In this document: positions 2,859 through 53,292 of the stretch, piece by piece | Layout: each line of letters begins with the position of its first letter | How positions within the stretch are numbered: position 1 is the first letter of the stretch | Assembly: GCA_965230795.1 (NCBI GenBank) | Contig: OZ246020.1 | Span: 1,554,585 to 1,618,584 of the forward strand | Source of the DNA: Oleiphilaceae bacterium | Lineage (GTDB): Bacteria; Pseudomonadota; Gammaproteobacteria; Pseudomonadales; Oleiphilaceae | DNA: 64,000 nucleotides | Direction: 5' to 3' | Translations under genes and position numbers: made by a program | The notes under the pieces: model-generated | Told to the model about the DNA's origin: nothing | The model's database searches: none | What the model saw: the letters and a program-made list of their open reading frames with translations, nothing else

Positions 2859-4457
2859 ATGATCACACCACGCGGTTTTTCGCTACTGATTCATGCTACC
2901 AGCCTGGCTTGGTTGATATGCGTCTCAGGCTTGGTCTTTTCCATATCCGGGTGCTCGTCGGGCAGCAGCAATAGCAGCGACAGCGACACACTTGTCGAAT
3001 CCGACGACTCCGGTATGGAGACCGATCCAGATGAGGAGCCCAGTGCTTTGGATCTGGCGCTTCAGGAGATCATTGATGATTTTGGCCTGGCGACGCCGGT
3101 CGCGACCGATCATCTGCCCAGTATTGAAGAGGCGCTTCCGCAACTGGGTATGAAGCTGTTCTATAGCAAGAGTCTGGGGGGCGATTTTGATGCGGCTTGT
3201 GTCAGCTGCCATCACCCGGCATTGGGTGGCGCTGATGGCCTGTCGTTGCCTGTCGGTGTGGATGCATTGAATCCTGATCTGTTGGGCCCCGGGCGTGTGA
3301 ATGAAGAGGGCATCCCGCTGGTACCACGCAATTCACCCACGGTCTTCAACGCCGGTTTGTGGGACACCGGCCTGTTCTGGGACTCAAGGGTTGAGAGTAT
3401 TGGCAAGGAGCCCGCTACGAACGGAGCCGTGTCGGGCATTCGCACCCCGGACAGCGAGTTTCTTGTCGCAGATCCTGATGCCGGTGCCAATCTGGCAGCC
3501 GCGCAGGCCCGTTTTCCGGTCACTTCAGAAACTGAGATGCAGACAGATCGTTTCGAGATCGGTTCGGATAATGACACGGTGCGCGCGCATCTGGCCGCAC
3601 GGATTGGTGATTACGGTGTCGGAGAAGGCGAGTTGGATGAGAACAATTGGCTGGAGGCGTTTCAGGAGGCCTTTGGTGTCTCGGCGGATGCAGAATCCCT
3701 GGTGACCTTTGATGCCATTGCGCAGGCTATCGGTGAATATGAGCGCTCCATGGTGTTTATTGACAGCCCATGGCGGCAGTATCTGGAGGGGGATCTGGAT
3801 GCGCTCAGCGAGGATGCCAAAGCAGGAGCCCTGCTGTTTTTTACTCCGGTGGCCCAGGGTGGAGCAGGTTGCGGAGCCTGCCATAACGGGCCGCTGTTCA
3901 GCGATGGACAGCACCATACACTTGCCTTTCCCCAGGCCGGACCCGGGGCAGGGGATGCCGACAACGATGATTTTGCCCGCGAGCGTGAAACCGGGAACTC
4001 GGATGACCGCTATCGTTTCCGTACTCCTTCGTTGCTGAATATCGCCCAGACAGCTCCCTATGGGCATGCGGGGGTATATGAATCGCTGACTGAGGTGGTG
4101 CGACACTATGTGAATCCGGGACGGGCCGTCAATGACTTTTTTAACTCCGGAGGTTTGTGTGGCAATGCCCAATTTGCCGATGTCGATGATTGCGAGTCAC
4201 TGTACCCGGACAATGAAGCCAACTCGGCTAAAGCGCTTGCCAAACTCCAGCAGGAAATCGATGCCGGTACCACGCGCTTCCAGCCGCCGCGATTGAACAA
4301 TACTGAAGTCGAGCAAGTAGTCGCCTTTCTTGAAGCCCTGAGCGACCCCTGCGTGCCTGACAGGGATTGCCTCGCGCCCTGGATACCCGACACTGCCGAC
4401 ACCGGCCCCGATGGTCAACAGCTGAATGCTGTGAATTCGGTTGGGGATTTTTTGTAG
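2859..4457 (+). CDS. di-haem cytochrome c peroxidase / MauG-family lipoprotein
   Basis: Lipoprotein signal (LVFSISGCSS). Two c-type haem motifs, CVSCHHP and CGACHNG. The overall CCP/MauG fold signature is present (PxxFNxxxxWDGR-like NSPTVFNAGLWDTGLFWDSR; RTPSLLNIAQTAPYGHAG). 532 aa with an N-terminal acidic extension. Confidence 0.8.
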   Translation: MITPRGFSLLIHATSLAWLICVSGLVFSISGCSSGSSNSSDSDTLVESDDSGMETDPDEEPSALDLALQEIIDDFGLATPVATDHLPSIEEALPQLGMKLFYSKSLGGDFDAACVSCHHPALGGADGLSLPVGVDALNPDLLGPGRVNEEGIPLVPRNSPTVFNAGLWDTGLFWDSRVESIGKEPATNGAVSGIRTPDSEFLVADPDAGANLAAAQARFPVTSETEMQTDRFEIGSDNDTVRAHLAARIGDYGVGEGELDENNWLEAFQEAFGVSADAESLVTFDAIAQAIGEYERSMVFIDSPWRQYLEGDLDALSEDAKAGALLFFTPVAQGGAGCGACHNGPLFSDGQHHTLAFPQAGPGAGDADNDDFARERETGNSDDRYRFRTPSLLNIAQTAPYGHAGVYESLTEVVRHYVNPGRAVNDFFNSGGLCGNAQFADVDDCESLYPDNEANSAKALAKLQQEIDAGTTRFQPPRLNNTEVEQVVAFLEALSDPCVPDRDCLAPWIPDTADTGPDGQQLNAVNSVGDFL

Positions 4458-4461
4458 CGCA

Positions 4462-4484
4462 AGACCAGGGATGGTCTTTTTTTA
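4462..4484 (+). terminator. rho-independent terminator after the peroxidase gene
   Basis: Perfect stem AGACCA-ggga-TGGTCT followed by a T7 run (4462-4484), immediately after the stop at 4457. Confidence 0.6.
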
Positions 4485-4845
4485 TGAATACTGGCACAGC
4501 GCCGAATCCGGTGCTTCCTGCAATGACGTTGTCTCAGCTAGTTTATTGACCGGTTGTGACGACGTATCGCGGGGCTCTCTCATACTTGCCCTCAGTACTC
4601 TTCCTCGTTTTGTCTTACATGCAAGCTGGCCTTCTTCCCCGAACTGATCCGTTGTCGATTGCACACCGCTTGGGTCCATTGACTCAGTCTGCATTGTGTA
4701 TTTTTCCTTCCTGCTTTCACTGCTGCCTGCTCCGTTTGAAATAGTAATGAATCGTTACTGATCTATGAAATGCAGATGTAACGAAACATTGCTTTTGTCT
4801 TTTGTTGATTTCATAAAAACTATAAATATCAATTAGTTAAAAAGT

Positions 4846-4861
4846 TGGCACGCCCCTCGCT
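4846..4861 (+). promoter_or_regulatory. candidate sigma54 (-24/-12) promoter upstream of the RiPP precursor gene
   Basis: TGGCACGccccTCGCT: GG at 4847-4848 and GC at 4859-4860 with exact GG-N10-GC spacing. It lies about 95 bp upstream of the ATG at 4957, in an AT-rich intergenic region. An NtrC-family activator is encoded 4 kb downstream. Confidence 0.45.
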
Positions 4862-4956
4862 ATGTCTTAGGTGTATTTAGCAAATCGCTGTCGAAATCGT
4901 CCGATTCCGGGCAGCGGAACATTCAAACCTTTTGGTTAACTATAGAGAGAACGAGT

Positions 4957-5376
4957 ATGAAAAATGCAACTCTTAAAAACACTTTGACTGCCGCTATCGG
5001 TTCATTCGTTGTTACGGGTCTGGCAACTTCCGCCGCTGTTCAGGCCGACTCAAACCCATTTGCCGCGACAGAGCTTAGCAGCGGCTACATGCTGCTGGCC
5101 GAGGGCTCCTGTGGAGAGGGTAAATGTGGTGCCAATGCCACCCTGACCGAGAAAAAATCTGAAGGCGCCTGTGGCGAAGGCAAGTGTGGTGGCGATAGCC
5201 ACTCCAACAAAACCGCGGAAGGTGCCTGTGGTGAGGGCAAATGTGGCGGTGATGAAAAGGCAGCCAGCAAAACCTCTGAAGGCGCGTGTGGTGAAGGAAA
5301 ATGTGGCGGCGATGCGAAACCCGCAGGCAAAACCTCTGAAGGTGCCTGTGGCGAAGGCAAGTGTGGCCACGCCTAA
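4957..5376 (+). CDS. secreted Cys-rich RiPP precursor with five tandem EG[AS]CGEGKCG repeats (bufferin BUF_EGKCG / HvfA-like)
   Basis: Good RBS (agagagaacgagtATG). Sec signal MKNATLKNTLTAAIGSFVVTGLATSAAVQA. Core is 5 x (K)TSEGACGEGKCGGDxxxxxK with 10 Cys, all in an EGxCG context. It is encoded by drifting ~60-nt tandem DNA repeats and followed by DUF692-DUF2063-DoxX. Confidence 0.8.
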   Translation: MKNATLKNTLTAAIGSFVVTGLATSAAVQADSNPFAATELSSGYMLLAEGSCGEGKCGANATLTEKKSEGACGEGKCGGDSHSNKTAEGACGEGKCGGDEKAASKTSEGACGEGKCGGDAKPAGKTSEGACGEGKCGHA

Positions 5377-5480
5377 TCCTCCTTCAACGAATCATGTGGC
5401 GGGTTGCCGCCACATGCGACCCACACATTCGAGGACGCTGCAAGAGTGTCCTGCCATCAGGTTTTTAACCGGAGAATACA

Positions 5481-6386
5481 ATGACTCAATCACGTGATCA
5501 GGCGCATGAATTTACACCGTCAATCAAAGGTGCGGGCCTGGGTTTACGTCGTTCCTTATTGAATCAGCTTTCGAGTGAAGATGTCGCCTCCAGTTCATCA
5601 GATGTGTTGGACTTTTTTGAAGTGGCGCCGGAAAACTGGATCGGTGTCGGCGGACGTTTGGGTCGCCAGCTAAAGGAAATTAGCGAGAAAAAGACAGTGA
5701 TTGCCCATGGATTGTCCTTGTCTGTTGGTGGCATGTCACCCTTGAATATCGAGTTGGTCAAGGACATTAAGCACTTTCTCAATGAACACAATATGCCAGT
5801 TTACAGCGAGCATCTGAGCTACTCGGCGGATGACGGCAACTTGTACGATCTGCTGCCACTGCCATTCACCGGGGAAGCGGTGAAGCACGTATCGGCACGA
5901 ATCCGACAGGTTCAGGACATGCTTGAACGCCGCATCGCCATCGAAAACATTTCTTACTATCTGGATTTGTCCAAAACGGTTGCTGGCCACACCATGACCG
6001 AAGTGGAGTTTATCAATGCGGTCTTGCAGGAGGCTGACTGCGATCTCTTGCTCGACGTCAACAACGTCTATGTGAACAGCCAGAACCATGGCTATGATCC
6101 CTTGCAGTTCCTGGCGCAGCTCAATGCCAAACATGTCTCCTACATTCATGTGGCCGGGCACTATCAGGAAGACGATGGTTTTATCATCGATACCCATGGT
6201 GCCGAGGTGATTGACCCGGTGTGGTCACTGCTGGCGACCGCCTATGAACACTTTGGTGTACTGCCGACCTTGCTGGAACGCGATTTCAATTTGCCGGCCC
6301 TGGCCGATCTGAAAAGCGAACTGGCGATCATCAAAGATCTTCAGGCAGCAGCCTCCGTGCATCAGCAGAAGGGGGTTGCCGCATGA
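5481..6386 (+). CDS. DUF692-family multinuclear non-heme iron oxidase (MNIO; BufB/HvfB/MbnB-like)
   Basis: TIM-barrel DUF692 signature blocks (GLGLRRSL, DFFEVAPENWIGVGG, AHGLSLSVGG, PVYSEHLSYS, HVAGHYQEDDGFIIDTHG). Sits directly downstream of the precursor gene. Confidence 0.9.
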   Translation: MTQSRDQAHEFTPSIKGAGLGLRRSLLNQLSSEDVASSSSDVLDFFEVAPENWIGVGGRLGRQLKEISEKKTVIAHGLSLSVGGMSPLNIELVKDIKHFLNEHNMPVYSEHLSYSADDGNLYDLLPLPFTGEAVKHVSARIRQVQDMLERRIAIENISYYLDLSKTVAGHTMTEVEFINAVLQEADCDLLLDVNNVYVNSQNHGYDPLQFLAQLNAKHVSYIHVAGHYQEDDGFIIDTHGAEVIDPVWSLLATAYEHFGVLPTLLERDFNLPALADLKSELAIIKDLQAAASVHQQKGVAA

Positions 6387-7144
6387 GCGCCTTGAGTTTA
6401 AACCAGTACCAGGAAGATCTGGCACTGTACCTGCGAGACCCTGAAAACAAGGCAATGCCACAACATTTGGATGAGCGACGCGCAGGTGTGTATCGCGATC
6501 TCGTGTTTAACAACATCGAAAGTCAGCTTGCGTCAGCATTTCCGGTGATTCACAGTCTCTACGACAGCGAATCATGGCAAGTTCTGGTTCGTGAATTTTT
6601 GCGAGACTTCCGGGCGCAAACCCCGTATTTCACCCAGCTATCGAAGGAGTTTGTGAGCTTTCTGGCAACCCGGACTGAAGAGGAAACGAATACTGAAAAA
6701 CAGCCGGCCTTCCTGCTGGAACTCGCGCACTACGAGCGTGTGGAAATCGATCTTTTCATGCGCAATGAATCCTATGAACGCAAGGAGCTGGATGATCATG
6801 CCTTAGTGAATGAAGCGCTGGGACTGGTGTCTACCGTCCAGCTTCTGGCCTATGCCTACCCGGTGCACCGCATTGCTCCTGACTATCAACCGCAACAAGC
6901 GCCGGAGTCGCCGACCATGTTGTTGTTATTTCAGGATGAAGAGGGCGAGGTGCGCTTTTTTGAGTTGCAGACTTTGGCCTACGAGCTGGTTTCTGCATTG
7001 GCGGAGGGTAAGCCGGCGACAGGCTTTGCACTTCTTCGGGCTTTGGCAGAACGCTTTCAGCTTCCCTTTACGCCGGCATTTCAGCAGCAGGGCCTGCAAT
7101 TGCTGGCTCAACTTAACCGTTTGAAAGTATTGCGAATTCAGTAA
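6383..7144 (+). CDS. DUF2063-family partner protein of the MNIO (BufC/HvfC-like, precursor recognition)
   Basis: Start overlaps the DUF692 stop (ATGA), indicating translational coupling. The N-terminus (YQEDLALYLRDPENKAMPQHLDERRAGVYRDLVFNNIESQLASAFP) is typical of the DUF2063 putative DNA-binding-like domain found next to DUF692 genes. Confidence 0.8.
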   Translation: MSALSLNQYQEDLALYLRDPENKAMPQHLDERRAGVYRDLVFNNIESQLASAFPVIHSLYDSESWQVLVREFLRDFRAQTPYFTQLSKEFVSFLATRTEEETNTEKQPAFLLELAHYERVEIDLFMRNESYERKELDDHALVNEALGLVSTVQLLAYAYPVHRIAPDYQPQQAPESPTMLLLFQDEEGEVRFFELQTLAYELVSALAEGKPATGFALLRALAERFQLPFTPAFQQQGLQLLAQLNRLKVLRIQ

Positions 7145-7179
7145 CAGGATTCGTCCCACTTATTCTCAGGACTATAATC

Positions 7180-7782
7180 ATGATCACAGCAATTAATCGA
7201 CTACAGGATCTTTTTGATCATTCCAAACGCCTGGATTTTCTGGCACCTCTGCTATTGCGCATTTATCTGGTTCCTGTTTTCTGGATGGCAGGCATTCAGA
7301 AGCTCAGCCATTTTGACAACACCGTAGCCTGGTTCGGGAATGAGGATTGGGGGCTGGGCTTACCCTTTCCGTGGCTGATGGCCGCGCTGGCTGTGGCCGC
7401 TGAGCTTGGCGGTGCCGTGTTGCTGGCCATCGGTCTGGCGACGCGCTGGGTATCGATTCCCATGATGTTCACCATGTTTGTCGCGGCGGTGTCAGTGCAT
7501 TGGCAGAACGGCTGGCTGGCAATCTCTACCGGCTCCGGCGTCTTCGCAACAGAACGGACGGTGGGTGCCATTGAGCGCCTGGAACGTGCCAGAACGATCC
7601 TGCAACAGCATGGCAATTATGAATGGCTAACGGAGCACGGATCCATTGCAATTTTGAATAACGGTATCGAGTTTGCCGCCACCTATTTCATCATGTTGCT
7701 GGCGCTCCTGTTTATTGGTGCGGGACGTTATGTGAGTGCGGATTACTGGATCGCAAAGCGCTTTCGTCGCGCCGTCAACTAG
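7180..7782 (+). CDS. DoxX-family membrane protein
   Basis: Four predicted TM helices. The DoxX-like N-terminus (LAPLLLRIYLVPVFWMAGIQKL) is conserved as the fourth gene of DUF692/DUF2063 operons. Confidence 0.8.
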   Translation: MITAINRLQDLFDHSKRLDFLAPLLLRIYLVPVFWMAGIQKLSHFDNTVAWFGNEDWGLGLPFPWLMAALAVAAELGGAVLLAIGLATRWVSIPMMFTMFVAAVSVHWQNGWLAISTGSGVFATERTVGAIERLERARTILQQHGNYEWLTEHGSIAILNNGIEFAATYFIMLLALLFIGAGRYVSADYWIAKRFRRAVN

Positions 7783-7802
7783 AACATATCAGAGCTAAGG
7801 AC

Positions 7803-9164
7803 GTGCCAGCGATGTCAACTCGTGTTTTCTGCTTGAGGCAGTATACTCTTGATGGCGAACTGATAAACGAACATAAGGCTGATATGACAGCAGACACTTC
7901 TCAAACGGGCGAAGTCCTTTCCAATCTGGATCAGGAAAAAGCCATTGCCTCGCTGGCTGCACTGAGTTATCGGACAGGCGAGCTGGATGACTATTTAAAG
8001 CAGATATGTCAGGCCGTGTTGGATGTGCTGGGCGATGGGGCCGCGGCGGTCACCCTGTATCGCAATGGCAAGAAGAATGTCATTGCCCGGGTGCCGCACA
8101 GTCCAAAAGTCGGAATGCCTCTGGATGTGCATGGCCATCTGTCTACCTTCGTGGTGGAGAGCGGTAAACCGCTGCGGGTGTCCGATGCGATCGCACACCC
8201 GGAATATGGCAATCCACCTGAAGGCTTTTGTTCCTATCTGGGCATTCCATTAAAACTGCCAGACGGCAAAGTGGTAGGCACGCTCTGTTACTTCGATAAA
8301 TCAAAGCGTGATTATGGTACGAAAGATGAGCAGATCGCCAGCCTGTTTGCCGAGCGAATCGCCGTCGCCCTGGATAATTACGAGCTGTATTTGCAGTTGA
8401 AACATCACTCGGAAAATCTGGAAGCGCTTGTTGAAGAGCGCACCCGGGCCTTGATGGCAACGCAGCGGGAACTCATGCAGAAAGAGAAGCTGGCAGCGAT
8501 CGGTGAATTTGCCAGTCATCTGACCCATGAGATTCGTAATCCGCTGGCGACCATCAAATTGGCTCTTGAGTATTTTGAGCGTTTGGAGGATGCGCGCTCG
8601 GCAAAGCGCGCCAGTTTGGCATGTTCGGAAATTTCACGTCTGGAGCGCATGTTAAGTCAGGTACTCAGCTATGCGCGGCCAACCGAATTACATAGCACGG
8701 TCATCAATCTGAGCGAGTTCCTGGATGAGTTTATCGCCACCAACGATGCCATGCTGGCGGAAAAGGATCTGCGCTTTGTCGTTGAAAAAGATGCCAGCCC
8801 TCAGGTCAAAGTGGATGTTGATAAGTTTGCGCAAGTCTTGTTGAATCTGGCATGCAATGCGGTTGAAGCGGCGGGAGCGAAACAGTCGATTACCTGGCGT
8901 CTGGCCGGCACCAAAACGCATGCAGTGCTGAGTATTCATAACGGTGGCGACACCATACCCGAAGACAAGCTCGCTACGATTACCGACGCCTTTGTCAGTT
9001 CCAAAACCAAAGGCACCGGGCTGGGTCTGGCGATTGTGAAAAACCTGGTGGAAACACATCAGGGAGAGCTGGAAATCTGTTCCTCAGAAGCGTCCGGAAC
9101 ACTCGTTACCTTGCGGCTGCCCCGTTGGACCGGAGATCTCAGCCATGAAGAGGGAGCGCGCTGA
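7803..9164 (+). CDS. GAF-domain sensor histidine kinase
   Basis: N-terminal GAF-like region (ALSYRTGELDDYLKQICQAVLDVLGD...). HisKA H-box HLTHEIRNPLATI. HATPase_c (NLACNAVEA, GTGLGLAIVKNLVETHQGEL). No TM segments, so it is cytoplasmic. The start may be the internal ATG near 7885. Confidence 0.85.
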   Translation: MPAMSTRVFCLRQYTLDGELINEHKADMTADTSQTGEVLSNLDQEKAIASLAALSYRTGELDDYLKQICQAVLDVLGDGAAAVTLYRNGKKNVIARVPHSPKVGMPLDVHGHLSTFVVESGKPLRVSDAIAHPEYGNPPEGFCSYLGIPLKLPDGKVVGTLCYFDKSKRDYGTKDEQIASLFAERIAVALDNYELYLQLKHHSENLEALVEERTRALMATQRELMQKEKLAAIGEFASHLTHEIRNPLATIKLALEYFERLEDARSAKRASLACSEISRLERMLSQVLSYARPTELHSTVINLSEFLDEFIATNDAMLAEKDLRFVVEKDASPQVKVDVDKFAQVLLNLACNAVEAAGAKQSITWRLAGTKTHAVLSIHNGGDTIPEDKLATITDAFVSSKTKGTGLGLAIVKNLVETHQGELEICSSEASGTLVTLRLPRWTGDLSHEEGAR

Positions 9165-10526
9165 ATGAATGCTCGCATCTTGCTGGTTGAAGATGAACAG
9201 GCGCTCGCCCAGATGCTATCGATGCATTTTGAGGATGAAGGCCATGAGGTCTTTCATGCCAGCAATCTGGCTGAAGCTCGGGAGTTGGCGGAGCAGCAGC
9301 CAGACTTGATTTTGATGGATCAGGGGCTGCCTGATGGCAAGGGCTATGACCTGTTGTGTGAATTACAGGAGCAGGGAAGCGGTGCCCTGATGATTATGAT
9401 GACGGCGGAGCATGATCTTGAATTGGCAATCGCCGCCATCAAGGCCGGCGCCTTTAACTTCATCCACAAGCCGATAAAAACTGATGAACTCAACCACACG
9501 GTTATTAAAGCTCTTGAGCATCAAAAGCTGTCCCGTCAGGTCGAGGTGCTGAGCGCAAAGGATGATCCTGTTATTAATGAACCACGCTTGCTGGGTAAAA
9601 GTCAGGCCATGCTTGATATCAGCAAGGAAATCGCACTGGTGGCAGACAGTAACACCCGAGTATTGATAACAGGCGAAAGCGGGACCGGTAAGGAACTGAT
9701 TGCCCACGCCATTCATCACCATAGCCAACGGCCAGGGCCGTTTATGGCCATCAACTGTGCGGCCCTGGTGGATAATTTGCTGGAAAGCGAGCTGTTTGGT
9801 CACGAACGCGGCGCCTTTACCGGTGCGACCGACCGCAAGCCCGGCAAGTTTGAACTGGCTGAGAACGGAACCCTGTTTCTGGATGAGGTGGGCGAGATGG
9901 CGCTGCCTCTGCAGGCCAAGTTATTGCGCGTTTTGCAGGAAGGCAACTTTGAGCGGGTAGGAGGGAGTCAGCAGTTGTTCACCAATGCCAGGGTCATTGC
10001 CGCAACCAACCGAAACCTGCCGCAGGAAATCGAAAAAGGGCATTTTCGGGAAGATTTGTATTATCGGCTGAATGCCATGGAGATAAAGCTGCCACCACTT
10101 CGCCAGCGCAGTGAAGATATTCCCAGTCTGGTAGAGGGTTTGCTTGAACGCATCTGTCGGGCCGAAGGCAAAGGGCTGATGCAAATTACCCCTGCGGCGC
10201 TGAGCTTGCTTTTGCAATACAGCTGGCCGGGAAATATCCGAGAGTTGCACAATGTGCTCACCCAGGCCGTCATCCGTGCGCGTAGTCATTTTATTGGTCC
10301 GGGTGAACTGACTATTAAAGGTGATGAGTCGTGCCCGGACGAGGCATTTGTCTCGGAAAACAATGACCCCCTAAGCTTGGCCGACATGGAGGCCCGGCAT
10401 ATTCAGCATGTGCTGAATCACTGTCACGGCAACAAAGCGCAAACGGCCAAGCTACTGGATATTTCTCGACCGGCTCTGGATCGCAAAGTGGATAAGTATG
10501 GACTGGTGGTGGAAAAGGGCTTGTGA
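9165..10526 (+). CDS. sigma54-dependent response regulator (NtrC family)
   Basis: Receiver domain ([14 protein letters not shown]...[14 protein letters not shown]). Sigma54 AAA+ domain ([39 protein letters not shown] motif, arginine finger region). C-terminal Fis-type HTH ([20 protein letters not shown]). The start codon abuts the kinase stop. Confidence 0.9.
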
Positions 10527-28890: not shown

Positions 28891-29556
28891 GTGGTTTCCA
28901 TGAAAGCAAAATCATCTGCACATTATCAGCGTGAATATCGCAAACGCCTGCGAGAGCAGGGTTTGGTTAAAAAGGAGGTGTGGATACTTCCGGAAAACGC
29001 GAAGCGCCTTTCTGCCTACGAGAAAGTGCTTCGGTCGCGTGTTTCGGGGGAGTCTGCCCAGTTTGATTTTCAATTAGGAGTGAGTGGAATGAGCAATGAT
29101 TCAGATAGTGTCTTGAAAGCCTGGACGACTGAGGGCTTGTTGGATGCCTTGGGTAAGGAGTCCTTGGTTAGCAGTGGCCAGGCAAGGATAGAATTAATTG
29201 ATGGGTTGGAGTCAACGCTGCTGATCGAGATGAAAGAGTATGGAGACCTTCCTGTATTTCTGACGGTTTCCGGTGAGCAGATTATTGTTGAGGCTGTCAT
29301 GTGGTCAGTGGATGAAGTGACCGATGTGGCCGCATTTAACGATGCGATTCTGCGGACTCATAAATTTTTTCCTTTATCCACAATCAGTTTGGACAAGGTC
29401 GGTGAAGAAGGAGATTACTATCACATGTTCGGGGCGTTGAGCTCGACATCTCTGCTCTCCAACGTGGTGTTTGAAATTGAAGTTTTGGCAAGCAACGTAA
29501 TTCAGGCAACAGAAGCTTATAGTGAGTTTTTGTCCGTCCCTGTGGCCGCTAACTGA
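28891..29556 (+). CDS. hypothetical protein, first gene of the PspA-flotillin cluster (possibly DUF2170/YjfI-like)
   Basis: 221 aa, acidic, no TM. It directly precedes a PspA-like gene, as yjfI precedes yjfJ in E. coli. The basic N-terminus (HYQREYRKRLREQGLVKKEV) could bind nucleic acid. Confidence 0.45.
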   Translation: MVSMKAKSSAHYQREYRKRLREQGLVKKEVWILPENAKRLSAYEKVLRSRVSGESAQFDFQLGVSGMSNDSDSVLKAWTTEGLLDALGKESLVSSGQARIELIDGLESTLLIEMKEYGDLPVFLTVSGEQIIVEAVMWSVDEVTDVAAFNDAILRTHKFFPLSTISLDKVGEEGDYYHMFGALSSTSLLSNVVFEIEVLASNVIQATEAYSEFLSVPVAAN

Positions 29557-29574
29557 TAGCGAAGGAGTGATTAA

Positions 29575-30267
29575 ATGAATATATGGGCGAAAATGATGAC
29601 TGCGCTTCGTGGAGGTGTTAACGAGGCGGGTGAGGCTCTGGTGGACAGTCAGGCCCTAAGGATTCTGGACCAGGAAGTTCGTGAGGCTTCGCAGGCTTTA
29701 CAGGATTCCAAGAACAGCTTGGCTGAGATTATGGCTCGTCAAAAGGTCGCCGAAGAGAAGTGTGCGTCCTTTAAAAAACAGATCAAAGAACACGAGGGTT
29801 ATGCTATCAAAGCGCTCGAGAAGGCGGACGAGAGGCTGGCTCGTGAAGTGGCAGAAAAAATTGCTGATTTGGAAAGCCAGTGTAGTCAAGAGCAGGAGTC
29901 TGCTGATGGCTTTGCTGCAAGTGCAGAGAAGATGCGAATGGCCATCAAGCAAACAGAGCGTAACCTTAAGCGTTTGAAGCAACAGGTTGATACGGTCAAA
30001 GCCACTGAGAATGTTCAGCGGGCGCAGGCAGCAGTGGCTGAGCGTCACAGTGGCTCGCACTCAAAAATGAGGACAGCAATGGATTCACTTGATCGGATCA
30101 AAGATAAACAAGCGCTGAAGGCAGCGCAGATGGCTGCGGCGAGTGAGTTGGCAGAACAGACCTCCGACGTCTCGCTGCAGGCGAAACTTGAAGAAGCTGG
30201 CATCGCTGGAAGTGGCAGTAGTGCCGACGATATTCTGGAGCGCTTGAAGAGCAAAGCTTCTAAATAA
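29575..30267 (+). CDS. PspA/IM30-family protein (ESCRT-III superfamily)
   Basis: MNIWAKMMTALRGGVNEAGEALVDSQALRILDQEVREASQALQDSKNSLAEIMARQKVAEEK... An all-helical coiled-coil of 230 aa typical of PspA/YjfJ. Confidence 0.8.
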   Translation: MNIWAKMMTALRGGVNEAGEALVDSQALRILDQEVREASQALQDSKNSLAEIMARQKVAEEKCASFKKQIKEHEGYAIKALEKADERLAREVAEKIADLESQCSQEQESADGFAASAEKMRMAIKQTERNLKRLKQQVDTVKATENVQRAQAAVAERHSGSHSKMRTAMDSLDRIKDKQALKAAQMAAASELAEQTSDVSLQAKLEEAGIAGSGSSADDILERLKSKASK

Positions 30268-30298
30268 AACGTGAAAAATCAATAAGGAGGAGTCGGGA

Positions 30299-30988
30299 AT
30301 GTTTGCGATATTTTTGATGGATGACATGGATCCGTTTTACCAGAACATTGCGTCATTTCCGACTGTAATTTTTACCTTTCTATTATTGCTCGTCGTGCTT
30401 TACTGGTTGGTGGCAGTTTTGGGATTGATAGACATCGATGTGCTCGATTTTGATATACCTGAAGCAGATGGAATGGACATCAATCCAGATACGGGCTTGA
30501 CTAATGCCAACGTGCTGGCCGGGCTCATGCTGCGTTTTGGACTTCATGGTGTTCCGGTAACGATTATTCTGTCGTTCATCGCGTTATTTGGCTGGTTTGT
30601 TTGTTACTACGCAGTTCATTTTCTCATGGGGATCATTCCGGAGGGCTTGCTCGCTTTTCTGGCGGGTATCCCGGTTTTTTTTGCATCCCTTTATGTTTCA
30701 GTAATGGTAACGGCATTAGTAATCAAACCGCTGCGGCCACTTTTCAGCAAGGCGTCTCAAGACACCTTGAAAAGGGTACTGGGTCAGACGGCGATCGTTC
30801 GTACCTCGCGTGTTGACAATAATTTTGGGGAAGCAATTCTCGAGGATGGTGGCGCTGGTTTACTTCTCAAAGTGAGAACGATTGGCGAGACAACTTTCTC
30901 AAGGGGAGACAGGGTTGTGCTGCTTGAATATGACAAAGAAAAAAATACTTACCGTGTAATTTCTGAAGAAGAATTTGCCGGTAGCTAA
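30299..30988 (+). CDS. NfeD-like membrane protein (YqiJ/YuaF-like, flotillin partner)
   Basis: Four or five TM helices, then a C-terminal OB-fold NfeD domain (GQTAIVRTSRVDNNFGEAILEDGGAGLLLKVRTIGETTFSRGDRVVLLEYDKEKNTYRV). It immediately precedes the flotillin gene. Confidence 0.7.
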   Translation: MFAIFLMDDMDPFYQNIASFPTVIFTFLLLLVVLYWLVAVLGLIDIDVLDFDIPEADGMDINPDTGLTNANVLAGLMLRFGLHGVPVTIILSFIALFGWFVCYYAVHFLMGIIPEGLLAFLAGIPVFFASLYVSVMVTALVIKPLRPLFSKASQDTLKRVLGQTAIVRTSRVDNNFGEAILEDGGAGLLLKVRTIGETTFSRGDRVVLLEYDKEKNTYRVISEEEFAGS

Positions 30989-31025
30989 CAATCAAAAAAT
31001 TTAATCTGGTAATGGAGTAACCGTT

Positions 31026-32975
31026 ATGACCGAGAGTTTGCCGTTGTTGATGCCTATTCTATTTGGCGTCGGAATTTTCTTTATCATTTTGATGGGGTTG
31101 GCCGCGCTCTTCAAAGCTTTCTATATCAAGGTAGAGCAGGGCACAGCCCTTATCGTAAACGACATGTCGTCGAAACCGAAAGTGCATTTCACCGGCGCAC
31201 TGGTATATCCGATCATTTACAAAAAAGAGTTGATGCGCATTTCGCTTATCACTCTGGAAATAGATCGTCGAGGCAAAGATGGTTTGATCTGCGCAGACAA
31301 TATGCGAGCGGATATCACTGTCGCATTCTATCTGCGGGTGAATGAAACCGCTGAGGACGTTTTAAAGGTTGCCAAATCAATCGGTTCAAGTCGTGCTTCC
31401 GATAAAGACGCGGTCAATGAGCTTTTTAACGCGAAGTTTTCTGAAGCCTTGAAGTCGGTTGGTAAGCAGGTTGAATTTGTCCAGCTGTTTGAAAACAGGC
31501 AAAAGCTGAGAGATTCAATTGTTGAGTGTATTGGCAACGATCTGAATGGTTATGTTCTTGAGGATGTGGCCATTGATTATCTGGAGCAAACACCCAAGTC
31601 CGCTCTGGATCCTCACAATATTCTTGATGCGGAAGGTATTCGCAAGATTACAGAGCTCACCGCCACACAAAATGTACAAACCAACAATTATGAGCGAGAT
31701 GAAGAACTCGCCATCAAGAAAAAGAACGTTGAGACAGTGGAAGCGATGTTATCACTGGAGCGTCAGCAGGCAGATGCGGAAGCCAAACAGGAGCGTGAGA
31801 TCGCTACGTTGCGTGCGCGCGAAGAAGCTGAAACCAAGAAAGTCCAGGAGGAGCAGCGCAAGATTGCAGAGGAAACCACAATCAAGGTGGAGCAGGAGTT
31901 GCAAGTTGCTGCAGAGAACCAGAAGCGGGAAATCGAAGTTGCGGAACAGAATCGTCTTCGCGCCGTCGCGATTGAAGAAGAAAAAGTGGTTCGTGCTAGA
32001 GATCTGGAAGTCGTCGACAGGGAGCGTCAGGTTGAGCTGGACAAAATCGCCGCTGAAAAAGCCCTGGAGGTTGAAAAGAAAGAAATTGCCAACGTTATCC
32101 GTGAGCGAGTTGCAGTAGACAAAACGGTTGCGGTTGAAGAGGAGCGTATAAAAGAAGTACGTGAAGTCTCAGAGGCAGATCGACAGAAGCAAACGCAGGT
32201 GCTGGCTGCGGAGGCTGCGGCTGAAGAAGATAAAGTCAAGCAAGTAAAAGCCGCAGAGGCAGAGGAAATCGCGGCGAAACACAAAGCAGTCGAGATCACG
32301 ACGATTGCTCAGGCGGAGCTCGAGGAAGCAGCCAAAAAAGCGGATGCGAAGAAGAAATTGGCCGAGGGTACACAGGCAGAAAGGGCCGCGCCAGGCTTGG
32401 CTGAAGCAAAAGTACAGGAAGCGAAAGCGGCTGCCCTGGAGAAAGAAGGACGTGCTGAAGCGGAAGTTATAAGAGCCAAAGGTGATGCAGAGGCGGATGC
32501 CTTGTCTGGTACAGGTAAGGCGCAGGCAGATGTGACCGCAGCACAGGGTGACGCTGAAGCACAAGCGGCCAGACAGTTAGGTCTCGCAAACGCAGAAGTT
32601 ACTCGTGAGCAGTTTAAAGCGGAAGCCGATGGTTTGGTTGAAAAGTTTGAGGCCATGAACACGATGAGTGAGGATGCTCGAGAGCACGAAGAGTACCGAA
32701 TGGGACTGGAGACTGCGCTGAAAGAGGCATTGGCATCTATCGAGGCTGGTAAAGATATCGCTAAAGAAAATGCCGAAGTGCTTGCCGTGGCCCTGCAGAA
32801 GGCGAAGATTGATATCGTTGGTGGTGAAGATCACTTCTTCGATAATTTCGCCAAGTCACTTTCAATTGGTAAGGCGGTAGATGGTCTGGCCGGTAAGAGT
32901 GATACGATTCAGTCACTGATCGATAGGGTGATTAGCGGCAAGAAGCCGACGGTTGTGGACGCAGAAAACGACTAG
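31026..32975 (+). CDS. flotillin-like SPFH/band-7 protein (FloT/YqiK-like) with long EA-rich coiled-coil
   Basis: N-terminal TM hairpin; SPFH domain (QGTALIVNDMSSKPKVHFTGALVYPIIYKKELMRISLITLEIDRRGKDGLICADNMRADITVAFYLRV). Extended flotillin E/A repeats follow (AEAKQEREIATLRAREEAETKK...). Confidence 0.85.
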   Translation: MTESLPLLMPILFGVGIFFIILMGLAALFKAFYIKVEQGTALIVNDMSSKPKVHFTGALVYPIIYKKELMRISLITLEIDRRGKDGLICADNMRADITVAFYLRVNETAEDVLKVAKSIGSSRASDKDAVNELFNAKFSEALKSVGKQVEFVQLFENRQKLRDSIVECIGNDLNGYVLEDVAIDYLEQTPKSALDPHNILDAEGIRKITELTATQNVQTNNYERDEELAIKKKNVETVEAMLSLERQQADAEAKQEREIATLRAREEAETKKVQEEQRKIAEETTIKVEQELQVAAENQKREIEVAEQNRLRAVAIEEEKVVRARDLEVVDRERQVELDKIAAEKALEVEKKEIANVIRERVAVDKTVAVEEERIKEVREVSEADRQKQTQVLAAEAAAEEDKVKQVKAAEAEEIAAKHKAVEITTIAQAELEEAAKKADAKKKLAEGTQAERAAPGLAEAKVQEAKAAALEKEGRAEAEVIRAKGDAEADALSGTGKAQADVTAAQGDAEAQAARQLGLANAEVTREQFKAEADGLVEKFEAMNTMSEDAREHEEYRMGLETALKEALASIEAGKDIAKENAEVLAVALQKAKIDIVGGEDHFFDNFAKSLSIGKAVDGLAGKSDTIQSLIDRVISGKKPTVVDAEND

Positions 32976-33065
32976 GGGTAATCCTCCTGAACTGTCCGAA
33001 TGGCAAGTTGGGTGTCTTTGAGATTCTCGACTTGTTTCCACCATCGTTAAAAAAGGAAAAAGTTC

Positions 33066-36000
33066 ATGGAACAGCATGATCTGTCGGCTGACAATGGAGC
33101 CAATTTAGTTGATCAAGCCGTTGCAGAAGGTGGTGCTTACGAAGTAATCCGCAAGCGCCTGGTTCAACAAAGCAAGCAGTTGTCAGATGTTACCTCTGCG
33201 TTAAATGCCGGTCGCCTGAATGAGTTCGGCAGTTCGGACATGGAAGTGATCGGTCGAGTACGGGTGCGTACCGAGAATAACTGCATCGCCAGGGATATTG
33301 TTCAGGTGGGGCCTCACCTGCTGTTCGGATATAACGTTTTCATCGGATTGAAAAAAGAAACTGCGGTTAGTGATGTATTTGCTCTTTTTGATGTCAAACA
33401 GACGGAGCAGGGTTTTGATCTCGAATCTGTCGACTTGGATAATTCTTTCCTGGCACATCCGGGGTTCGTCAACGACTTTGATGAACTGTATCGCTATTAC
33501 AAAAATACGCGCTTAATCCAGTTGCGGGTCAAGGACGGAAAGCTGCTCGCGGGTTTCCAGATTGGTGAGCGTCTCAGTGATGTGCGGGTTTTTCGCTGGG
33601 CTTTGTCTCCTGATGGCCAGGTTGAATATATTGACAATCGTGGTGAAAGGGATCTTGAGTTACCTTCACCCTACGATTTTGAATGGACGTTTACAACAAG
33701 GGATGACAGCGTTCAGGGGCGCCATCCCCATATTAATGTGCTCGATACGGTTTTTGTTGAGACCACTGATGGCGATTTGACCATTAAGGTAGAAAATAAC
33801 ACGGAAAATGGTCTAGGGATTTATAGCGAGCCTGTGGAAGACAAAACCCAATCTTTGGATGATGCCCAGATTGCCTATGCGAGCGTAGGCGGATTGATAC
33901 TTCTGAAGATAAGACCCTATCGGGAGGAGGCTTGGCGTTATCTTATTTTTAACACTGTCACTCAGGAAGTCGTGCGACAGGATGCGATTGGTGAATCATG
34001 CGTCCAGTTACCTGAGGATCACGGCATCATTTTCCCAGGCGGTTATTATTTGCAGTCGGGTGAGAAGAAGGCGTTTGATGATGGTGTGACGGGGCTTAAA
34101 TTCAAAAGAGTGCTGCGGTCTCCCAACGGCGAGGACGTGTTATACGTCTTTTACCAACCGGAAGAGGGTATGGTCGGTCTTTTCGCCTACAACCTGATCG
34201 AAAAGCAATTACAGAATCCGGTTTATGGACACGGCTATGCCTTGGCAGAGGACGGTAGCCTGGTTATTTTTCAAGCTGAGGAAGAACCAACCAGAGTGCA
34301 TCCCATGCAGATCTGGAAAACCCCGTATGAGAGTGTGGAGCATGCGAGTAAAGCTCCTCCAAGTCAGACGTTTTTCGGGCGTATCGGTAACGCAGAGCTG
34401 GTTCGTGGAATCTCCGATCTCTACAGTATTTGTCGTCTGGTCGACAATCAGTCAGTGTCGCTGCGGCAATACGAAGAGCTAAGCAGAGCGGCGAAAAAAA
34501 TCTTCGATGATCATTACTGGTTGGAGGAGGCTGAGACCAGTAAGATCGCTTCATGTGTCAGGGATATATGTGCTACTTCGGAGCTGGTCATTGATGAGTT
34601 TGAGAAGGTTGAGAGCATTCGGGAACAGTCTGCCAAAACCATGTCTGAAGCTTTTCACGATCAGGAGACGCTGCTCGCCGAAGCGCGGCCCGATAACTGG
34701 GAGCTTGCAGAAGAGTATGTGGATGCGTTGAGCAAAGTGCGTAAACAGCGCGGTCATTTGGTGGGTATCAAATCGCTGCGCTACATCGATGTTGCGCGCA
34801 TCGAGGCGATGGAGAATGAGCTGACAGAGAGGGAGCATGAGCTCACGCAGGCGACGGTTGAGTTTCTGTCTGATGAAAAAGCCCTTAATCCCTATCATGA
34901 AAAAATTGCGGGTCTCCAGGCCGATATTGATAAATCCGAGACCAAGGCTGAGTTGTCCCCGTTAATCGAGGCCGTTGAAAAAACTGCCGCGGGTCTGGAT
35001 CTGCTCTCGGAAATCATGGGGGCACTTAAGGTAGATGATGCGACTGTTCGAACTCGCATCATTGATGCTGTCACTGAGGTTTACGCAAAGCTAAACCAAA
35101 CTAAAGCCGCTGCAACGCGGAAGAGCAAATCTCTTGGTTCGTCGGAAGCGGTTGCCCAGTTTTCTGCTCAGTTCAAACTTTTTTCACAGACCATTGCCAA
35201 TGCACTTGGGGTTTCCAACACTCCTGAAAAGTGCGATGAACAGTTATCGCGCCTGTTAATTCAACTAGAGGAATTTGAAAGTCAATTCAGTGATCATGAC
35301 CAGTTTCTCGCGGACATCATGGAGAAGCGGGAAGAGGTCTATGAATCCTTCGAATCCCATAAACAGCAACTCTTGGATGAGCGACAGCGCAAGGCTCAGA
35401 CCCTGGCCGATGCGGCAAACCGTATTCTGGGCAACATAGAAAAGCGCTCGCTGAAGTTCACCGAGAAAGACGATTTAAATACCTATTTCGCTTCAGATGC
35501 CCTGGTTATCAAAGTGCGCGAGCTGGTTTCTGAATTGCGGAATTTGGACAATGCAGTCAAAGCTGACGATTTGGAATCTCGTTTCAAGGCGATCAAAGAA
35601 CAGTCACTACGATCCCTGCGCGACAAAACAGAGATCTATGAGGCGGGTGGAAATGTCATCAAGTTGGGGCCTAGACATCGCTTTTCCGTGAATACCCAAG
35701 ACCTGGATCTTACCATCATTCCACGTAATGGGATTCTCAATATCCACCTGACCGGTACGGATTATTTTGAAGCTATTCATTATTCAGAACTGATGCAGCT
35801 CAAAGACTATTGGGACATGTCGCTCGAGTCTGAAACATCAGCAGTGTATCGTAGTGAGTACCTGGCATATCGTGTCATAGAGGCAGCACAGAACAACCAG
35901 CAGGGATTGAGCATGCCAGCTTTGATGCAGTCTATCAAAGATGATGAGTTTTCGGGCCTGGTGAAGGACTTTGCTGCCCCGCGCTATAAGGAAGGCTACG

Positions 36001-38468
36001 AAAAAGGCATTCACGATTATGATGCGACCTTGATACTAAAAGCCTTGCTGCCTTCTTTGCATATGGCAGAGCTGTTGAAGTATGACTCGACAAGCAGAGC
36101 CGTGGCACAGGTTTTCTGGTCCCACACGACTCGAGCTATAAAGGATAACAAAGATCGAAGAGTCCATGACCAATCCGCAGATGTCTGGTTGAAAACAGCC
36201 GTGACGTGGCCAGTCCGTGCCCGAGCTGCTATGCAGCTGAATAGCAGTCTGTCCAGTCGTAAAGCTGTAGATCTGTTGGCTCAGGAGATTCTTGATTACC
36301 TCAAGTCGTTTTTAGAAAAACATCCAATCGAAATTCCGAATCATACTATTAGACAGGCTGCTTACTATCTGGTTGACGAGTATGGTCGGGACGACTTTGC
36401 GTTCGTTACAAGTCAGTATGGTTTGGATTTGGTAGAAGAGCTGAAGCGCAGCACGAATGACTTAGCCTGGAATACCTTTGTAGCTTCTCTGCGTGAACTG
36501 GATTCAAACCCTGCCGAAAAGTGGAAAGTCGCTGAGGCTTGGCTGCAGGCGATGGTCGATTCGTTGCCACAAGACAACGAAACTCAGGCTAAGAAAGGTC
36601 GTTATCTTGCCGAGGCGATAGCTCTTCTTGTTGAGCCTGATAGCGTTCCGCGCCGGACCAGCAATGTGGAGCTTGAACTGCTTGTCGAAGGCTTGCTTGG
36701 CGAGCATGCTCGCATATCCAAACAGCGTATGGCTGTCGGAGTTGACGATTTTCTGTCCCGGATGAAACATCATTGTGAGGAAGTAATACCGGCCTATCAG
36801 CACTATCTTCGTACCCGTCAGGAGGTCATCTCAAAAGAGAGAGAGGCTTTGAGGCTGGAAGAGTTCAAAGCGCGGCCACTAAGTTCATTTGTACGCAACC
36901 GCTTGATCAATGAATCCTATCTTCCCTTGATCGGCGATAATCTGGCTAAACAAATGGGAACGGTCGGAGAAAACAAACGATCCGATTTGATGGGTCTGCT
37001 AATGATGATTTCGCCACCAGGTTATGGCAAAACGACATTGATGGAGTATGTCGCCAATCGCCTGGGCTTGATTTTCATGAAGATCAATTGCCCTTCCTTG
37101 GGGCATGATGTGTTGTCTCTGGACCCCCAGCAGGCTCCGAACGCAACGGCAAGACAAGAGCTCGAAAAGCTCAACCTGGCGCTGGAGATGGGAAATAATG
37201 TGATGCTTTATCTGGATGATATTCAGCATACTCATCCAGAATTTCTGCAGAAATTTATCTCCCTGTGTGATGGCACCAGACGTATTGAAGGTGTCTGGAA
37301 AGGGAAAACCAAAACCTATGATATGCGCGGACGCAAGTTCTGTGTGGTAATGGCAGGTAATCCCTACACGGAATCTGGTGAAGCCTTCAAAGTACCCGAC
37401 ATGCTGGCAAACCGGGCAGATATCTACAACCTTGGCGATATTCTAGGCGGCATGGATGAACAGTTTGCGCTCAGTTATGTGGAGAATGCTCTGACTTCAA
37501 ATGCTGTATTGGCGCCTCTTGCAGTCAGGGAAATGGGGGATGTTTACAAACTGATTGATATGGCAAAGGGCAAAGAAATTGCAACCACTGATCTGAGCCA
37601 CCAATACAGCGGTGCTGAAATTAGTGAAATCACAGAAGTTTTGAAAAAGATGTTTGTGATTCAGGACGTGGTTCTCAAGATCAATAAACAATACATAGCA
37701 TCCGCTGCTCAAAACGATAAGTACCGGACTGAACCCAGCTTCAAGTTACAGGGCAGCTATCGCAATATGAACAAAATGAGTGAGAAGCTTTCGGCTGTCA
37801 TGAACGATGCAGAGCTTATGCAGATGATTGAAGATCATTATCTAGGGGAAGCCCAGCTGCTGACTTCAGGCGCAGAAGATAATCTTTTGAAGCTTGCTGA
37901 ATTGCGCGGAAATATGACAGATGAGCAGTCAGCCCGCTGGCAAGAAATCAAACGTGATTTTCTTCGTGATAAAGCTATGGGAGGCGATAGCGCTGATGTG
38001 GGAGCAAAAGTCGTCGCTCAGCTCGTAGACATCGTAAGTGGACTGCGAGATCTCAAGGCTGTCGCGCAAGAGGCGGTTGAACGTGGTGACACAAAAGACG
38101 CGGAACAGGTGAATGAGACTCCGCGGCAGGACATGCTAACCCTGGAGCAGCTTTCTCGAGAAATGGACAAACTGGTTGGTGCTCTAAAGAGCCACCGACC
38201 AAACGTGGAAGTGGTAAACCAGCCGGTACCCGGCATCGACAAGATTCTTTCTGTATTGGCAGATTCCATTGAGCATAGTTTGATGCCCGTTGTTAAGAGC
38301 ATGGACAAGAAGCTCGATATTGATTTGCGAACGCATTACAAGTTGAGAGATGTGTCTGAACAGCTGAGGAATCTTGAGCATGCTATAGGGCTTGAGGATC
38401 ACAAGTCCGGAACAAGTTCTCTGCGCACGGATACGGAAGATTCGGATCTCCAAAGCCGGGAAGAATAG
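33066..38468 (+). CDS. giant (1800 aa) multidomain protein with AAA+ ATPase of the AAA_5 (MoxR/dynein/McrB-like) type near the C-terminal third
   Basis: RBS aaaaggaaaaagttcATG. Walker A MMISPPGYGKTTLMEYV; Walker B VMLYLDDIQHTHPEF; sensor/arginine region FCVVMAGNPYTESGEAFKVPDMLANRADIYNL. The N-terminal ~450 aa are a beta-rich globular region, followed by about 700 aa of helical and coiled-coil sequence. No TM segments. Confidence 0.7.
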   Translation: MEQHDLSADNGANLVDQAVAEGGAYEVIRKRLVQQSKQLSDVTSALNAGRLNEFGSSDMEVIGRVRVRTENNCIARDIVQVGPHLLFGYNVFIGLKKETAVSDVFALFDVKQTEQGFDLESVDLDNSFLAHPGFVNDFDELYRYYKNTRLIQLRVKDGKLLAGFQIGERLSDVRVFRWALSPDGQVEYIDNRGERDLELPSPYDFEWTFTTRDDSVQGRHPHINVLDTVFVETTDGDLTIKVENNTENGLGIYSEPVEDKTQSLDDAQIAYASVGGLILLKIRPYREEAWRYLIFNTVTQEVVRQDAIGESCVQLPEDHGIIFPGGYYLQSGEKKAFDDGVTGLKFKRVLRSPNGEDVLYVFYQPEEGMVGLFAYNLIEKQLQNPVYGHGYALAEDGSLVIFQAEEEPTRVHPMQIWKTPYESVEHASKAPPSQTFFGRIGNAELVRGISDLYSICRLVDNQSVSLRQYEELSRAAKKIFDDHYWLEEAETSKIASCVRDICATSELVIDEFEKVESIREQSAKTMSEAFHDQETLLAEARPDNWELAEEYVDALSKVRKQRGHLVGIKSLRYIDVARIEAMENELTEREHELTQATVEFLSDEKALNPYHEKIAGLQADIDKSETKAELSPLIEAVEKTAAGLDLLSEIMGALKVDDATVRTRIIDAVTEVYAKLNQTKAAATRKSKSLGSSEAVAQFSAQFKLFSQTIANALGVSNTPEKCDEQLSRLLIQLEEFESQFSDHDQFLADIMEKREEVYESFESHKQQLLDERQRKAQTLADAANRILGNIEKRSLKFTEKDDLNTYFASDALVIKVRELVSELRNLDNAVKADDLESRFKAIKEQSLRSLRDKTEIYEAGGNVIKLGPRHRFSVNTQDLDLTIIPRNGILNIHLTGTDYFEAIHYSELMQLKDYWDMSLESETSAVYRSEYLAYRVIEAAQNNQQGLSMPALMQSIKDDEFSGLVKDFAAPRYKEGYEKGIHDYDATLILKALLPSLHMAELLKYDSTSRAVAQVFWSHTTRAIKDNKDRRVHDQSADVWLKTAVTWPVRARAAMQLNSSLSSRKAVDLLAQEILDYLKSFLEKHPIEIPNHTIRQAAYYLVDEYGRDDFAFVTSQYGLDLVEELKRSTNDLAWNTFVASLRELDSNPAEKWKVAEAWLQAMVDSLPQDNETQAKKGRYLAEAIALLVEPDSVPRRTSNVELELLVEGLLGEHARISKQRMAVGVDDFLSRMKHHCEEVIPAYQHYLRTRQEVISKEREALRLEEFKARPLSSFVRNRLINESYLPLIGDNLAKQMGTVGENKRSDLMGLLMMISPPGYGKTTLMEYVANRLGLIFMKINCPSLGHDVLSLDPQQAPNATARQELEKLNLALEMGNNVMLYLDDIQHTHPEFLQKFISLCDGTRRIEGVWKGKTKTYDMRGRKFCVVMAGNPYTESGEAFKVPDMLANRADIYNLGDILGGMDEQFALSYVENALTSNAVLAPLAVREMGDVYKLIDMAKGKEIATTDLSHQYSGAEISEITEVLKKMFVIQDVVLKINKQYIASAAQNDKYRTEPSFKLQGSYRNMNKMSEKLSAVMNDAELMQMIEDHYLGEAQLLTSGAEDNLLKLAELRGNMTDEQSARWQEIKRDFLRDKAMGGDSADVGAKVVAQLVDIVSGLRDLKAVAQEAVERGDTKDAEQVNETPRQDMLTLEQLSREMDKLVGALKSHRPNVEVVNQPVPGIDKILSVLADSIEHSLMPVVKSMDKKLDIDLRTHYKLRDVSEQLRNLEHAIGLEDHKSGTSSLRTDTEDSDLQSREE

Positions 38469-52930: not shown

Positions 52931-53292
52931 TGAAGCATTCTAATTTAGCTCCCAGAATACTTCGGGTTCGCGATGCCAGAAATTACTGTGGGATGTGCGA
53001 GCGATTGTTTAATCGGCTAATTAGGCCCTATCTCACTGAAATTGTGATCGGAATTCAGGGCGTTGGTTTTGATCGTATTGAATTGGATTGCGTACTGGAG
53101 GATTATATTCAGCGGTACGGTCGCCCTCCTAAAGCGAGACTTGAGGAGAACGACAAATGCAGAAAAGAAAACAAGCAATTGCTGGCCTATACAAAAGGAA
53201 AGGTGTCTGGCACATCGACAAAACGATTGGTGGAGTCAGAATTTGCGAAAGCGCTAGAACGAGTAAAAAGGAAGAGGCCGAACGTTTCTTAG
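52931..53292 (+). CDS. putative AlpA/excisionase-like small DNA-binding protein (overlaps integrase start; extent uncertain)
   Basis: LRVRDARNYCGMCERLFNRLIRPYLTEIVIGIQGVGFDRIELDCVLEDYI resembles AlpA/Xis-type HTH proteins and sits immediately upstream of int. The 3' 135 nt overlap int in another frame. Confidence 0.35.

Follow-up and report, generated by a model that had tools for sequence, protein, structure and literature searches.

A candidate sigma-54/enhancer cassette at an hvf-type RiPP operon of an Oleiphilaceae bacterium and related lineages

Known regulators of hvf-type operons and comparable sigma-54 circuits

Bufferin and hvf operons, in which a precursor gene is combined with genes for an MNIO maturase, a DUF2063 protein and a DoxX protein for the production of copper-binding peptides (PMC11626156, PMC11252979, PMC12452194), include members controlled by an extracytoplasmic function (ECF) sigma factor and an anti-sigma sensor. 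SigF-NrsF (in Caulobacter and Cupriavidus) and BvgAS regulate bufferin clusters (PMC11626156), and expression in H. influenzae is linked to RpoE2 (PMC11252979). Regulators catalogued beside MNIO-PME1 (captophorin) clusters (Table S1 of 10.1101/2025.11.18.689057) include LysR at 22.9%, NrsF at 14.1% and, with ~8.5% apiece, PhoB and CopS-like proteins. The present work concerns a 64-kb stretch of the genome of an Oleiphilaceae bacterium (contig OZ246020.1, positions 1,554,585 to 1,618,584; hereafter the window, with positions counted from its first letter), where an operon for a peptide that is ribosomally synthesized and then modified post-translationally (RiPP) is joined to a sensor kinase gene and a gene for an NtrC-type activator in place of the ECF sigma and anti-sigma genes. 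The comparisons described below make it very probable that the hvfA-hvfX operon and this regulator pair form a self-contained sigma-54/enhancer cassette, with a single predicted sigma-54 promoter at 4846-4861, in the style of glnAp2-NtrBC.

The regulators of the CopRS/PhoB and LysR types near captophorin clusters are OmpR/PhoB- or LysR-type sigma-70 regulators and thus differ in kind from the pair in the window. Neither a sigma-54 activator nor a GAF kinase is found in Table S1 of 10.1101/2025.11.18.689057 or in a biosynthetic gene cluster survey (PMC12452194), which covers the core genes only for oxazolin clusters and applies a 10-bp intergenic rule, under which the window kinase would have been excluded. 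An earlier, sequence-only reading of this DNA had noted no earlier description of sigma-54 control for this RiPP class. The full texts and supplements searched on bufferin, oxazolin and captophorin clusters likewise make no mention of Sigma54, GAF or enhancer-binding proteins (EBPs) for them; the single paper containing both 'sigma-54' and 'DUF692' concerns unrelated clusters. The inducers of oxazolin- and bufferin-type peptides outside ECF-sigma systems are a stated open question (PMC11252979; 10.1101/2025.11.18.689057).

Among sigma-54 circuits, the E. coli glnAp2-NtrB/NtrC system is alike in its soluble kinase, its REC-AAA+-HTH activator, its two tandem sites ~32-34 bp apart and ~100 bp upstream of the -24/-12 element, and its AT-rich spacer; the NtrC sites at glnAp2 lie at -140/-108. 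The window element shares the form AAAGTTGGCAC-N5-TCGCT with a sequence that all 5426 complete E. coli genomes carry ~60 nt upstream of glnA; we take this sequence to be the glnAp2 promoter, and the upstream AAAGT also matches. Unlike glnAp2-NtrBC, the window has a GAF sensor and not a PAS domain with PII input, its candidate enhancer is GTAAYGAWTCRTTAC and not the NtrC site, its target is a RiPP operon, and its activator falls below the NtrC equivalog cut-off (382 vs 559). A second parallel is ZraSR-ZraP, a zinc-responsive sigma-54 two-component system that induces a periplasmic metal-binding product. ZraS is membrane-bound and senses in the periplasm. The window kinase, for which ZraS provides the closest solved kinase core (9jfj, E = 1.1e-46), is in contrast soluble with a GAF domain, and the equivalog scores of the pair fall far short of the cut-offs (163 vs 479 for ZraS and 338 vs 760 for ZraR). 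Of the NCBIfam models, AtoS gives the highest score for the kinase and AtoC for the activator, and JGI labels some orthologues AtoC, yet both scores lie well under the cut-offs (165 vs 646 for AtoS, 435 vs 714 for AtoC) and the context is unrelated to acetoacetate genes. With the models for NtrC, ZraR, LuxO, GlrR and others also below cut-off, the activator belongs to an unnamed EBP subfamily.

The RiPP operon, its predicted promoter and the candidate enhancer sites

Six co-directional genes, hvfA-hvfB-hvfC-hvfX-kinase-activator, lie on the forward strand. The first (4957-5376) encodes an hvfA-type precursor of 139 aa with a Sec-type signal peptide and five EG(S/A)CGEGKCG repeats (10 Cys), which scores 82.3 bits against the 19.5 cut-off of NF050137 and misses the strict HvfA equivalog NF050188 (75.9 vs 95). 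It is followed by hvfB (5481-6386), encoding the MNIO (DUF692) maturase (PF05114, E = 6.7e-100; NF003818, 404.7 vs a cut-off of 360), by hvfC (6383-7144), encoding the DUF2063/NGO1945_C partner protein (NF050145, 239.5 vs 142), and by hvfX (7180-7782), encoding a DoxX family membrane protein (NF050144, 239.8 vs 80). The EGKCG-repeat precursor with its signal peptide, together with HvfB, HvfC and HvfX, places the operon among the HvfA/oxazolin (captophorin, MNIO-PME1) RiPP clusters.

The kinase gene (7812-9164, or from an alternative GTG start at 7803) begins 20-29 nt after hvfX and encodes a GAF-HisKA-HATPase_c protein. No part of it resembles a transmembrane segment (the highest Kyte-Doolittle mean over 19 aa is 1.31), and the sensor is therefore soluble. 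The last gene (9165-10526) encodes an enhancer-binding response regulator composed of REC (PF00072), sigma-54 AAA+ (PF00158, E = 4.7e-69), AAA lid (PF25601) and HTH_8 (PF02954) domains. Its motifs DQGLPD at 52, GESGTGKE at 170, GAFTGA at 216 and DEVGE at 240 give it the features of an NtrC-type (group I) activator, namely a phospho-acceptor Asp in the REC domain, Walker A/B and GAFTGA motifs in the AAA+ domain, and a Fis-type HTH at the C-terminus. Domains, motifs and hydropathy thus agree with the earlier description of the genes after doxX as a cytoplasmic GAF histidine kinase and a full NtrC-family EBP.

The predicted sigma-54 -24/-12 element is located in the 480-nt intergenic region upstream of hvfA, where GC content falls to 0.34-0.35 (4675-4899) vs 0.50-0.59 in the flanking genes. 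At 4846-4861 on the forward strand the sequence reads TGGCACGCCCCTCGCT, its first fifteen positions (4846-4860) being TGGCACGCCCCTCGC, with GG at 4847-4848, GC at 4859-4860 and N10 between them. The GC of the -12 element precedes the precursor ATG (4957) by ~97 nt; the near-consensus element with exact GG-N10-GC spacing that had been noted ~95 bp before the ATG in AT-rich DNA is accordingly present in the sequence. Compared with TGGCACG-N4-TTGCW, 11 of 12 core positions match, and the sole deviation, T to C at -14, is likewise present in the sequence upstream of E. coli glnA. From this element, transcription is predicted to start at ~4871 (+/-2). A simple, crude scan for sigma-70-like sites on the forward strand between 4300 and 10800 returned none. 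On the minus strand, a sigma-54-like sequence (TGGCACGTCCTTAGCT) at the hvfX-kinase junction (7793-7808) points antisense into hvfX; about 2.8 such one-mismatch matches are expected in the window, and it was set aside as probably due to chance.

Enhancer inverted repeats had been anticipated at 4750-4840, and two candidate upstream activating sequences (UASs) are indeed found there or just outside. Site 1 (GTAATGAATCGTTAC, 4744-4758) fits the 15-bp palindrome GTAAYGAWTCRTTAC perfectly and is centred at ~-120 from the predicted start; site 2 (GTAACGAAACATTGC, 4778-4792) has 2 mismatches, is centred at ~-86 and begins 34 bp after site 1. Between the sites and the promoter, a forward-strand A/T block, CAA-N4-TTAAAAGT (4828-4845), adjoins the -24 element and is conserved in the alignment of related upstream regions. 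In the window this block contains TATCAATTAGTTA, which fits the IHF core WATCAANNNNTTR; with its centre near -37, it would lie closer to the promoter than is typical of IHF, and the reading of 4828-4840 as an IHF site is kept as a note only. In three related loci, a third, half-palindrome-like GTAATGAATTAAA lies ~10-30 nt past the predicted start (L021 6394-6410, L022 4098-4114, L033 ~3733-3749). Neither the window nor L013 has this sequence, which could represent an auxiliary or repressive activator site.

Conservation of the cassette and hvf loci without the pair

Related loci (numbered with the prefix L) were found by protein searches with HvfB and the activator, followed by context look-ups. 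The same six-gene order with unrelated flanks occurs in L013/L014, L017, L018-20, L022-25 and L033, from marine metagenomes, and in L038/L039, from 'Gammaproteobacteria bacterium 45_16_T64'. Where sequenced, the activators of the pair-bearing lineages are 67-81% identical to that of the window, and because the flanking genes differ each time, the cassette appears to travel as a unit. In L021 the same upstream elements are present and the sequence ends inside hvfC, with any kinase and activator genes beyond view.

The upstream DNA of the window, L013, L021, L022, L033 and L038 was compared. All six regions contain TTAAAAGTTGGCA[C/T][G/A]-N4-TCGC[T/A] 58-96 nt before the precursor ATG, with invariant GG and GC and the varied spacers CCCC, CGCT, CTAA, CTAC, GCGT and GCTT. 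Invariant GG/GC with a free spacer is how a bipartite sigma-54 element should be conserved, and this supports the prediction made for the window. The other lineages also carry the same palindrome pair, in either orientation as a palindrome allows, with one centre at -117 to -120 and the other at -85/-86 relative to the predicted start. The distance from the UASs to the promoter is fixed in all six regions while the length of the 5′ untranslated region ranges from 48 to 86 nt. In the 467 kb of loci that were fetched, an exact promoter match paired with a UAS occurs exclusively upstream of these precursors, and the remaining 323 kb of loci contain one stray promoter-like and four stray UAS-like matches that are never paired.

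Single-protein scans of genome and metagenome contigs yielded only distant hvf loci (at most 60% identity), which served as negative controls. The roughly thirteen hvf loci that have no kinase/activator pair (L002, L003, L005-8, L026-31, L034, L036/37) show no comparable -24/-12 element at a comparable position and no palindromes. MNIO identity to the window is 61% for L038, which has the pair and both elements, vs 69% for L034 and ~65-66% for L036, which have neither element; by this comparison, the predicted promoter and candidate palindromes follow the activator and not MNIO relatedness. In L036 and L037, genes for an ECF sigma factor and a zf-HC2 anti-sigma factor lie immediately upstream of hvf (L036 4773-5638, L037 3805-4670), and the regulatory module is there swapped on the same RiPP core. 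Taken together, the conserved -24/-12 element, the paired palindromes and their absence from loci that lack the pair lend comparative support to the proposal of the sequence-only reading that the adjacent activator controls the operon through sigma-54.

Several points weigh against this interpretation. For the exact pattern of the earlier note, 0.07 matches are expected by chance in 64 kb when both strands are counted, and 7 of 100 shuffles contained at least one, so that the motif by itself is only marginally beyond chance (p ~0.07 in the window), and with one mismatch allowed, 2 matches are found vs 2.8 expected, i.e., no enrichment. The palindrome GTAAYGAWTCRTTAC at up to 2 mismatches has exactly two matches in 64 kb, the two candidate sites, vs 0.26 expected, a within-window statistic that is post hoc, as the pattern was derived from these same sequences. 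The pair-bearing lineages are mutually related, and counts of co-occurrence are therefore not counts of independent events. An orthologous kinase/activator pair (activator 66% identical) is located away from hvfABC in L040, and a search near it found no target promoter. The larger open reading frames examined in the window do not include rpoN. Lastly, if the pair is read from the hvfA promoter only, a basal promoter would still be needed, and none was identified.

The marginal significance of the motif alone, the crudeness of the sigma-70 scan and the fact that, as documented, the bufferin/hvf family is as a rule under ECF sigma control (PMC11626156, PMC11252979), as in L036, would all suit a different explanation, in which the -24/-12 match is due to chance or to a conserved block that is not a promoter and the operon is read from an unrecognized sigma-70 or ECF-type promoter. 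The significance of the match is drawn from its position and its conservation in other lineages, and not from the motif alone. The bipartite conservation is exact, with GG/GC fixed, the spacer free and a fixed distance to two palindromes, and is limited to loci with the GAFTGA activator; furthermore, no ECF sigma (Sigma70_r2/r4) or anti-sigma (NrsF, zf-HC2) genes flank the window operon. On this evidence a chance match or another type of promoter is very improbable.

A genuine sigma-54 promoter could also be driven by another EBP, or the palindromes bound by another factor, with the adjacent pair acting on a different target. The separate location of the pair in L040 speaks for this, as does L038, where another GAF-EBP gene lies just before the cassette. 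This extra EBP is absent from the other lineages, and over six genomic contexts the hvf operon is the sole neighbour conserved with the pair. The palindromes are confined to loci with this activator; HvfC, which formerly carried a DNA-binding annotation, is by contrast encoded at every hvf locus. Control by a factor other than the adjacent activator is therefore considered unlikely, if somewhat less so than the lack of a sigma-54 promoter.

Mixed control is a more substantial alternative, in which the sigma-54 promoter would serve induced expression of hvfA-X and the kinase/activator genes would also possess a weak constitutive promoter of their own instead of being purely autoregulated. A basal supply of the regulators is logically needed, and the hvfX-kinase gap of ~60-190 nt in L017, L018, L022 and L033 could accommodate such a promoter. 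The window gap, by contrast, measures only 20-29 nt, the two genes overlap in L013, and no forward-strand sigma-70-like site was found either by the window scan or in the L017 gap. An additional promoter of this kind is quite possible, if still somewhat short of probable.

Proposed circuit, candidate signals and genomic surroundings

For the sigma-54 cassette as favoured here, a circuit can be proposed from the order of its parts and their resemblance to characterized systems. The soluble kinase would sense a cytoplasmic cue via its Cys-rich GAF domain and phosphorylate the receiver domain of the activator, which would then oligomerize on the two GTAAYGAWTCRTTAC palindromes near -120 and -86. 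From there the activator would reach over the AT-rich, probably bent spacer and, using ATP and its GAFTGA loop, open the closed complex of sigma-54 polymerase, with transcription starting near 4871 in an RpoN-dependent manner. As the kinase gene follows hvfX closely with no terminator between them (and overlaps it in L013), read-through is likely, and we infer that the circuit is probably positively autoregulated.

The extent of the activator group was examined through its database relatives. A drop in their bit scores, from 610 down to 540 near 62% identity, indicates where the orthologue group ends. About 45 clusters have at least 62% identity, and genomic context was inspected for 12 look-ups. 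The next relatives (at most 58% identity) are in other genomic contexts; the nearest outgroup activator (57% identical; L042 1-8383) lies beside a CusB/CzcB-type RND metal-efflux operon and a stand-alone receiver protein.

Among the kinases of the hvf-linked clade, conservation is highest in the GAF domain, exceeding that of the kinase core, and C66, H107, C140 and C159 are invariant. In single-GAF kinases at 35-47% identity, C159 (in GTLCYF) alone stays invariant. When just the GAF domain was used as query, a word-indexed search returned only 2 proteins. A three-sequence AlphaFold model of the domain (predicted local distance difference test score 77.7, one of five models good) gives generic GAF matches to PtsP, fRMsr, DosS/DosT and phytochromes, and such fold-level matches identify no ligand. 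Only two solved GAF relatives are detectable by sequence, the GAF domain of an HD-GYP protein and the haem-binding GAF-A of DosS/DevS. In the alignment to the latter, C140 of the kinase falls in a loop aligned with the haem-ligating region, which holds the haem histidine of DosS. These features suggest that the GAF domain may be a thiol-, metal- or haem-based sensor, which is a lead and not a result. In L040 (1-1500, 5775-8350), a Methylococcales-like contig, the orthologous pair lies ~4 kb from msrA/msrB, followed by a DoxX gene whose product is 63% identical to HvfX; the proximity of msrAB hints at a connection to oxidative stress.

A more specific and rather speculative idea, which we hold only tentatively, is that the kinase detects intracellular Cu(I), thiol/oxidant stress or haem/gas via Cys66, His107, Cys140 and Cys159, and that sigma-54 in turn induces a periplasmic copper-binding thiooxazole peptide, so that the cassette would constitute a portable sense-and-respond module. 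If true, it would mark the first case of a RiPP metallophore circuit that depends on sigma-54, with a GAF sensing chemistry that is also new.

The upstream boundary of the transcription unit is marked by two terminator-like hairpins on the forward strand, each followed by a T-run (4419-4443 and 4461-4478), after the gene directly upstream of the hvf operon (2859-4457, forward strand). This gene encodes a MauG/MbnH-like di-haem cytochrome c peroxidase (PF03150) that scores under the cut-offs of TIGR03981 and of the MbnH model TIGR04039. Divergent from it, on the minus strand, are the genes of a BaeS/BaeR-like two-component system (1095-2822 and 328-1020); the MauG-like and BaeSR-like neighbourhood is not conserved in the other lineages. 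Within the operon, the hvfA-hvfB gap contains two stable hairpins (5388-5452; minimum free energy -40.5 kcal/mol, z = -4.5) that might determine how much precursor is made relative to enzyme. L017, L021, L022, L033 and L038 lack comparable structure and L013 shows it only weakly, and because of this lack of conservation the hairpins were left out of the mechanism. An Rfam scan of the whole window detected no RNA family. Elsewhere in the window (28891-38468) are genes for DUF2170, PspA/IM30 and an 1800-aa DUF3686 ATPase, with two open reading frames that have no Pfam match, and further on a second PspA-like gene and a phage-type integrase gene (48095-48790, 53157-54281).

The locus represents a new regulatory variant, of which the RiPP class and the circuit type are each already known. 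Its scope is modest, as the known members form a clade of mostly uncultured marine gammaproteobacteria. Within that scope, it illustrates how one RiPP core (hvfABCX) is coupled to different regulatory modules in related bacteria, a putative sigma-54/EBP module in some and an ECF sigma factor in others. The cassette also provides a defined predicted promoter, a 15-bp candidate operator and a dedicated soluble sensor, with which silent hvf-type clusters might be activated.

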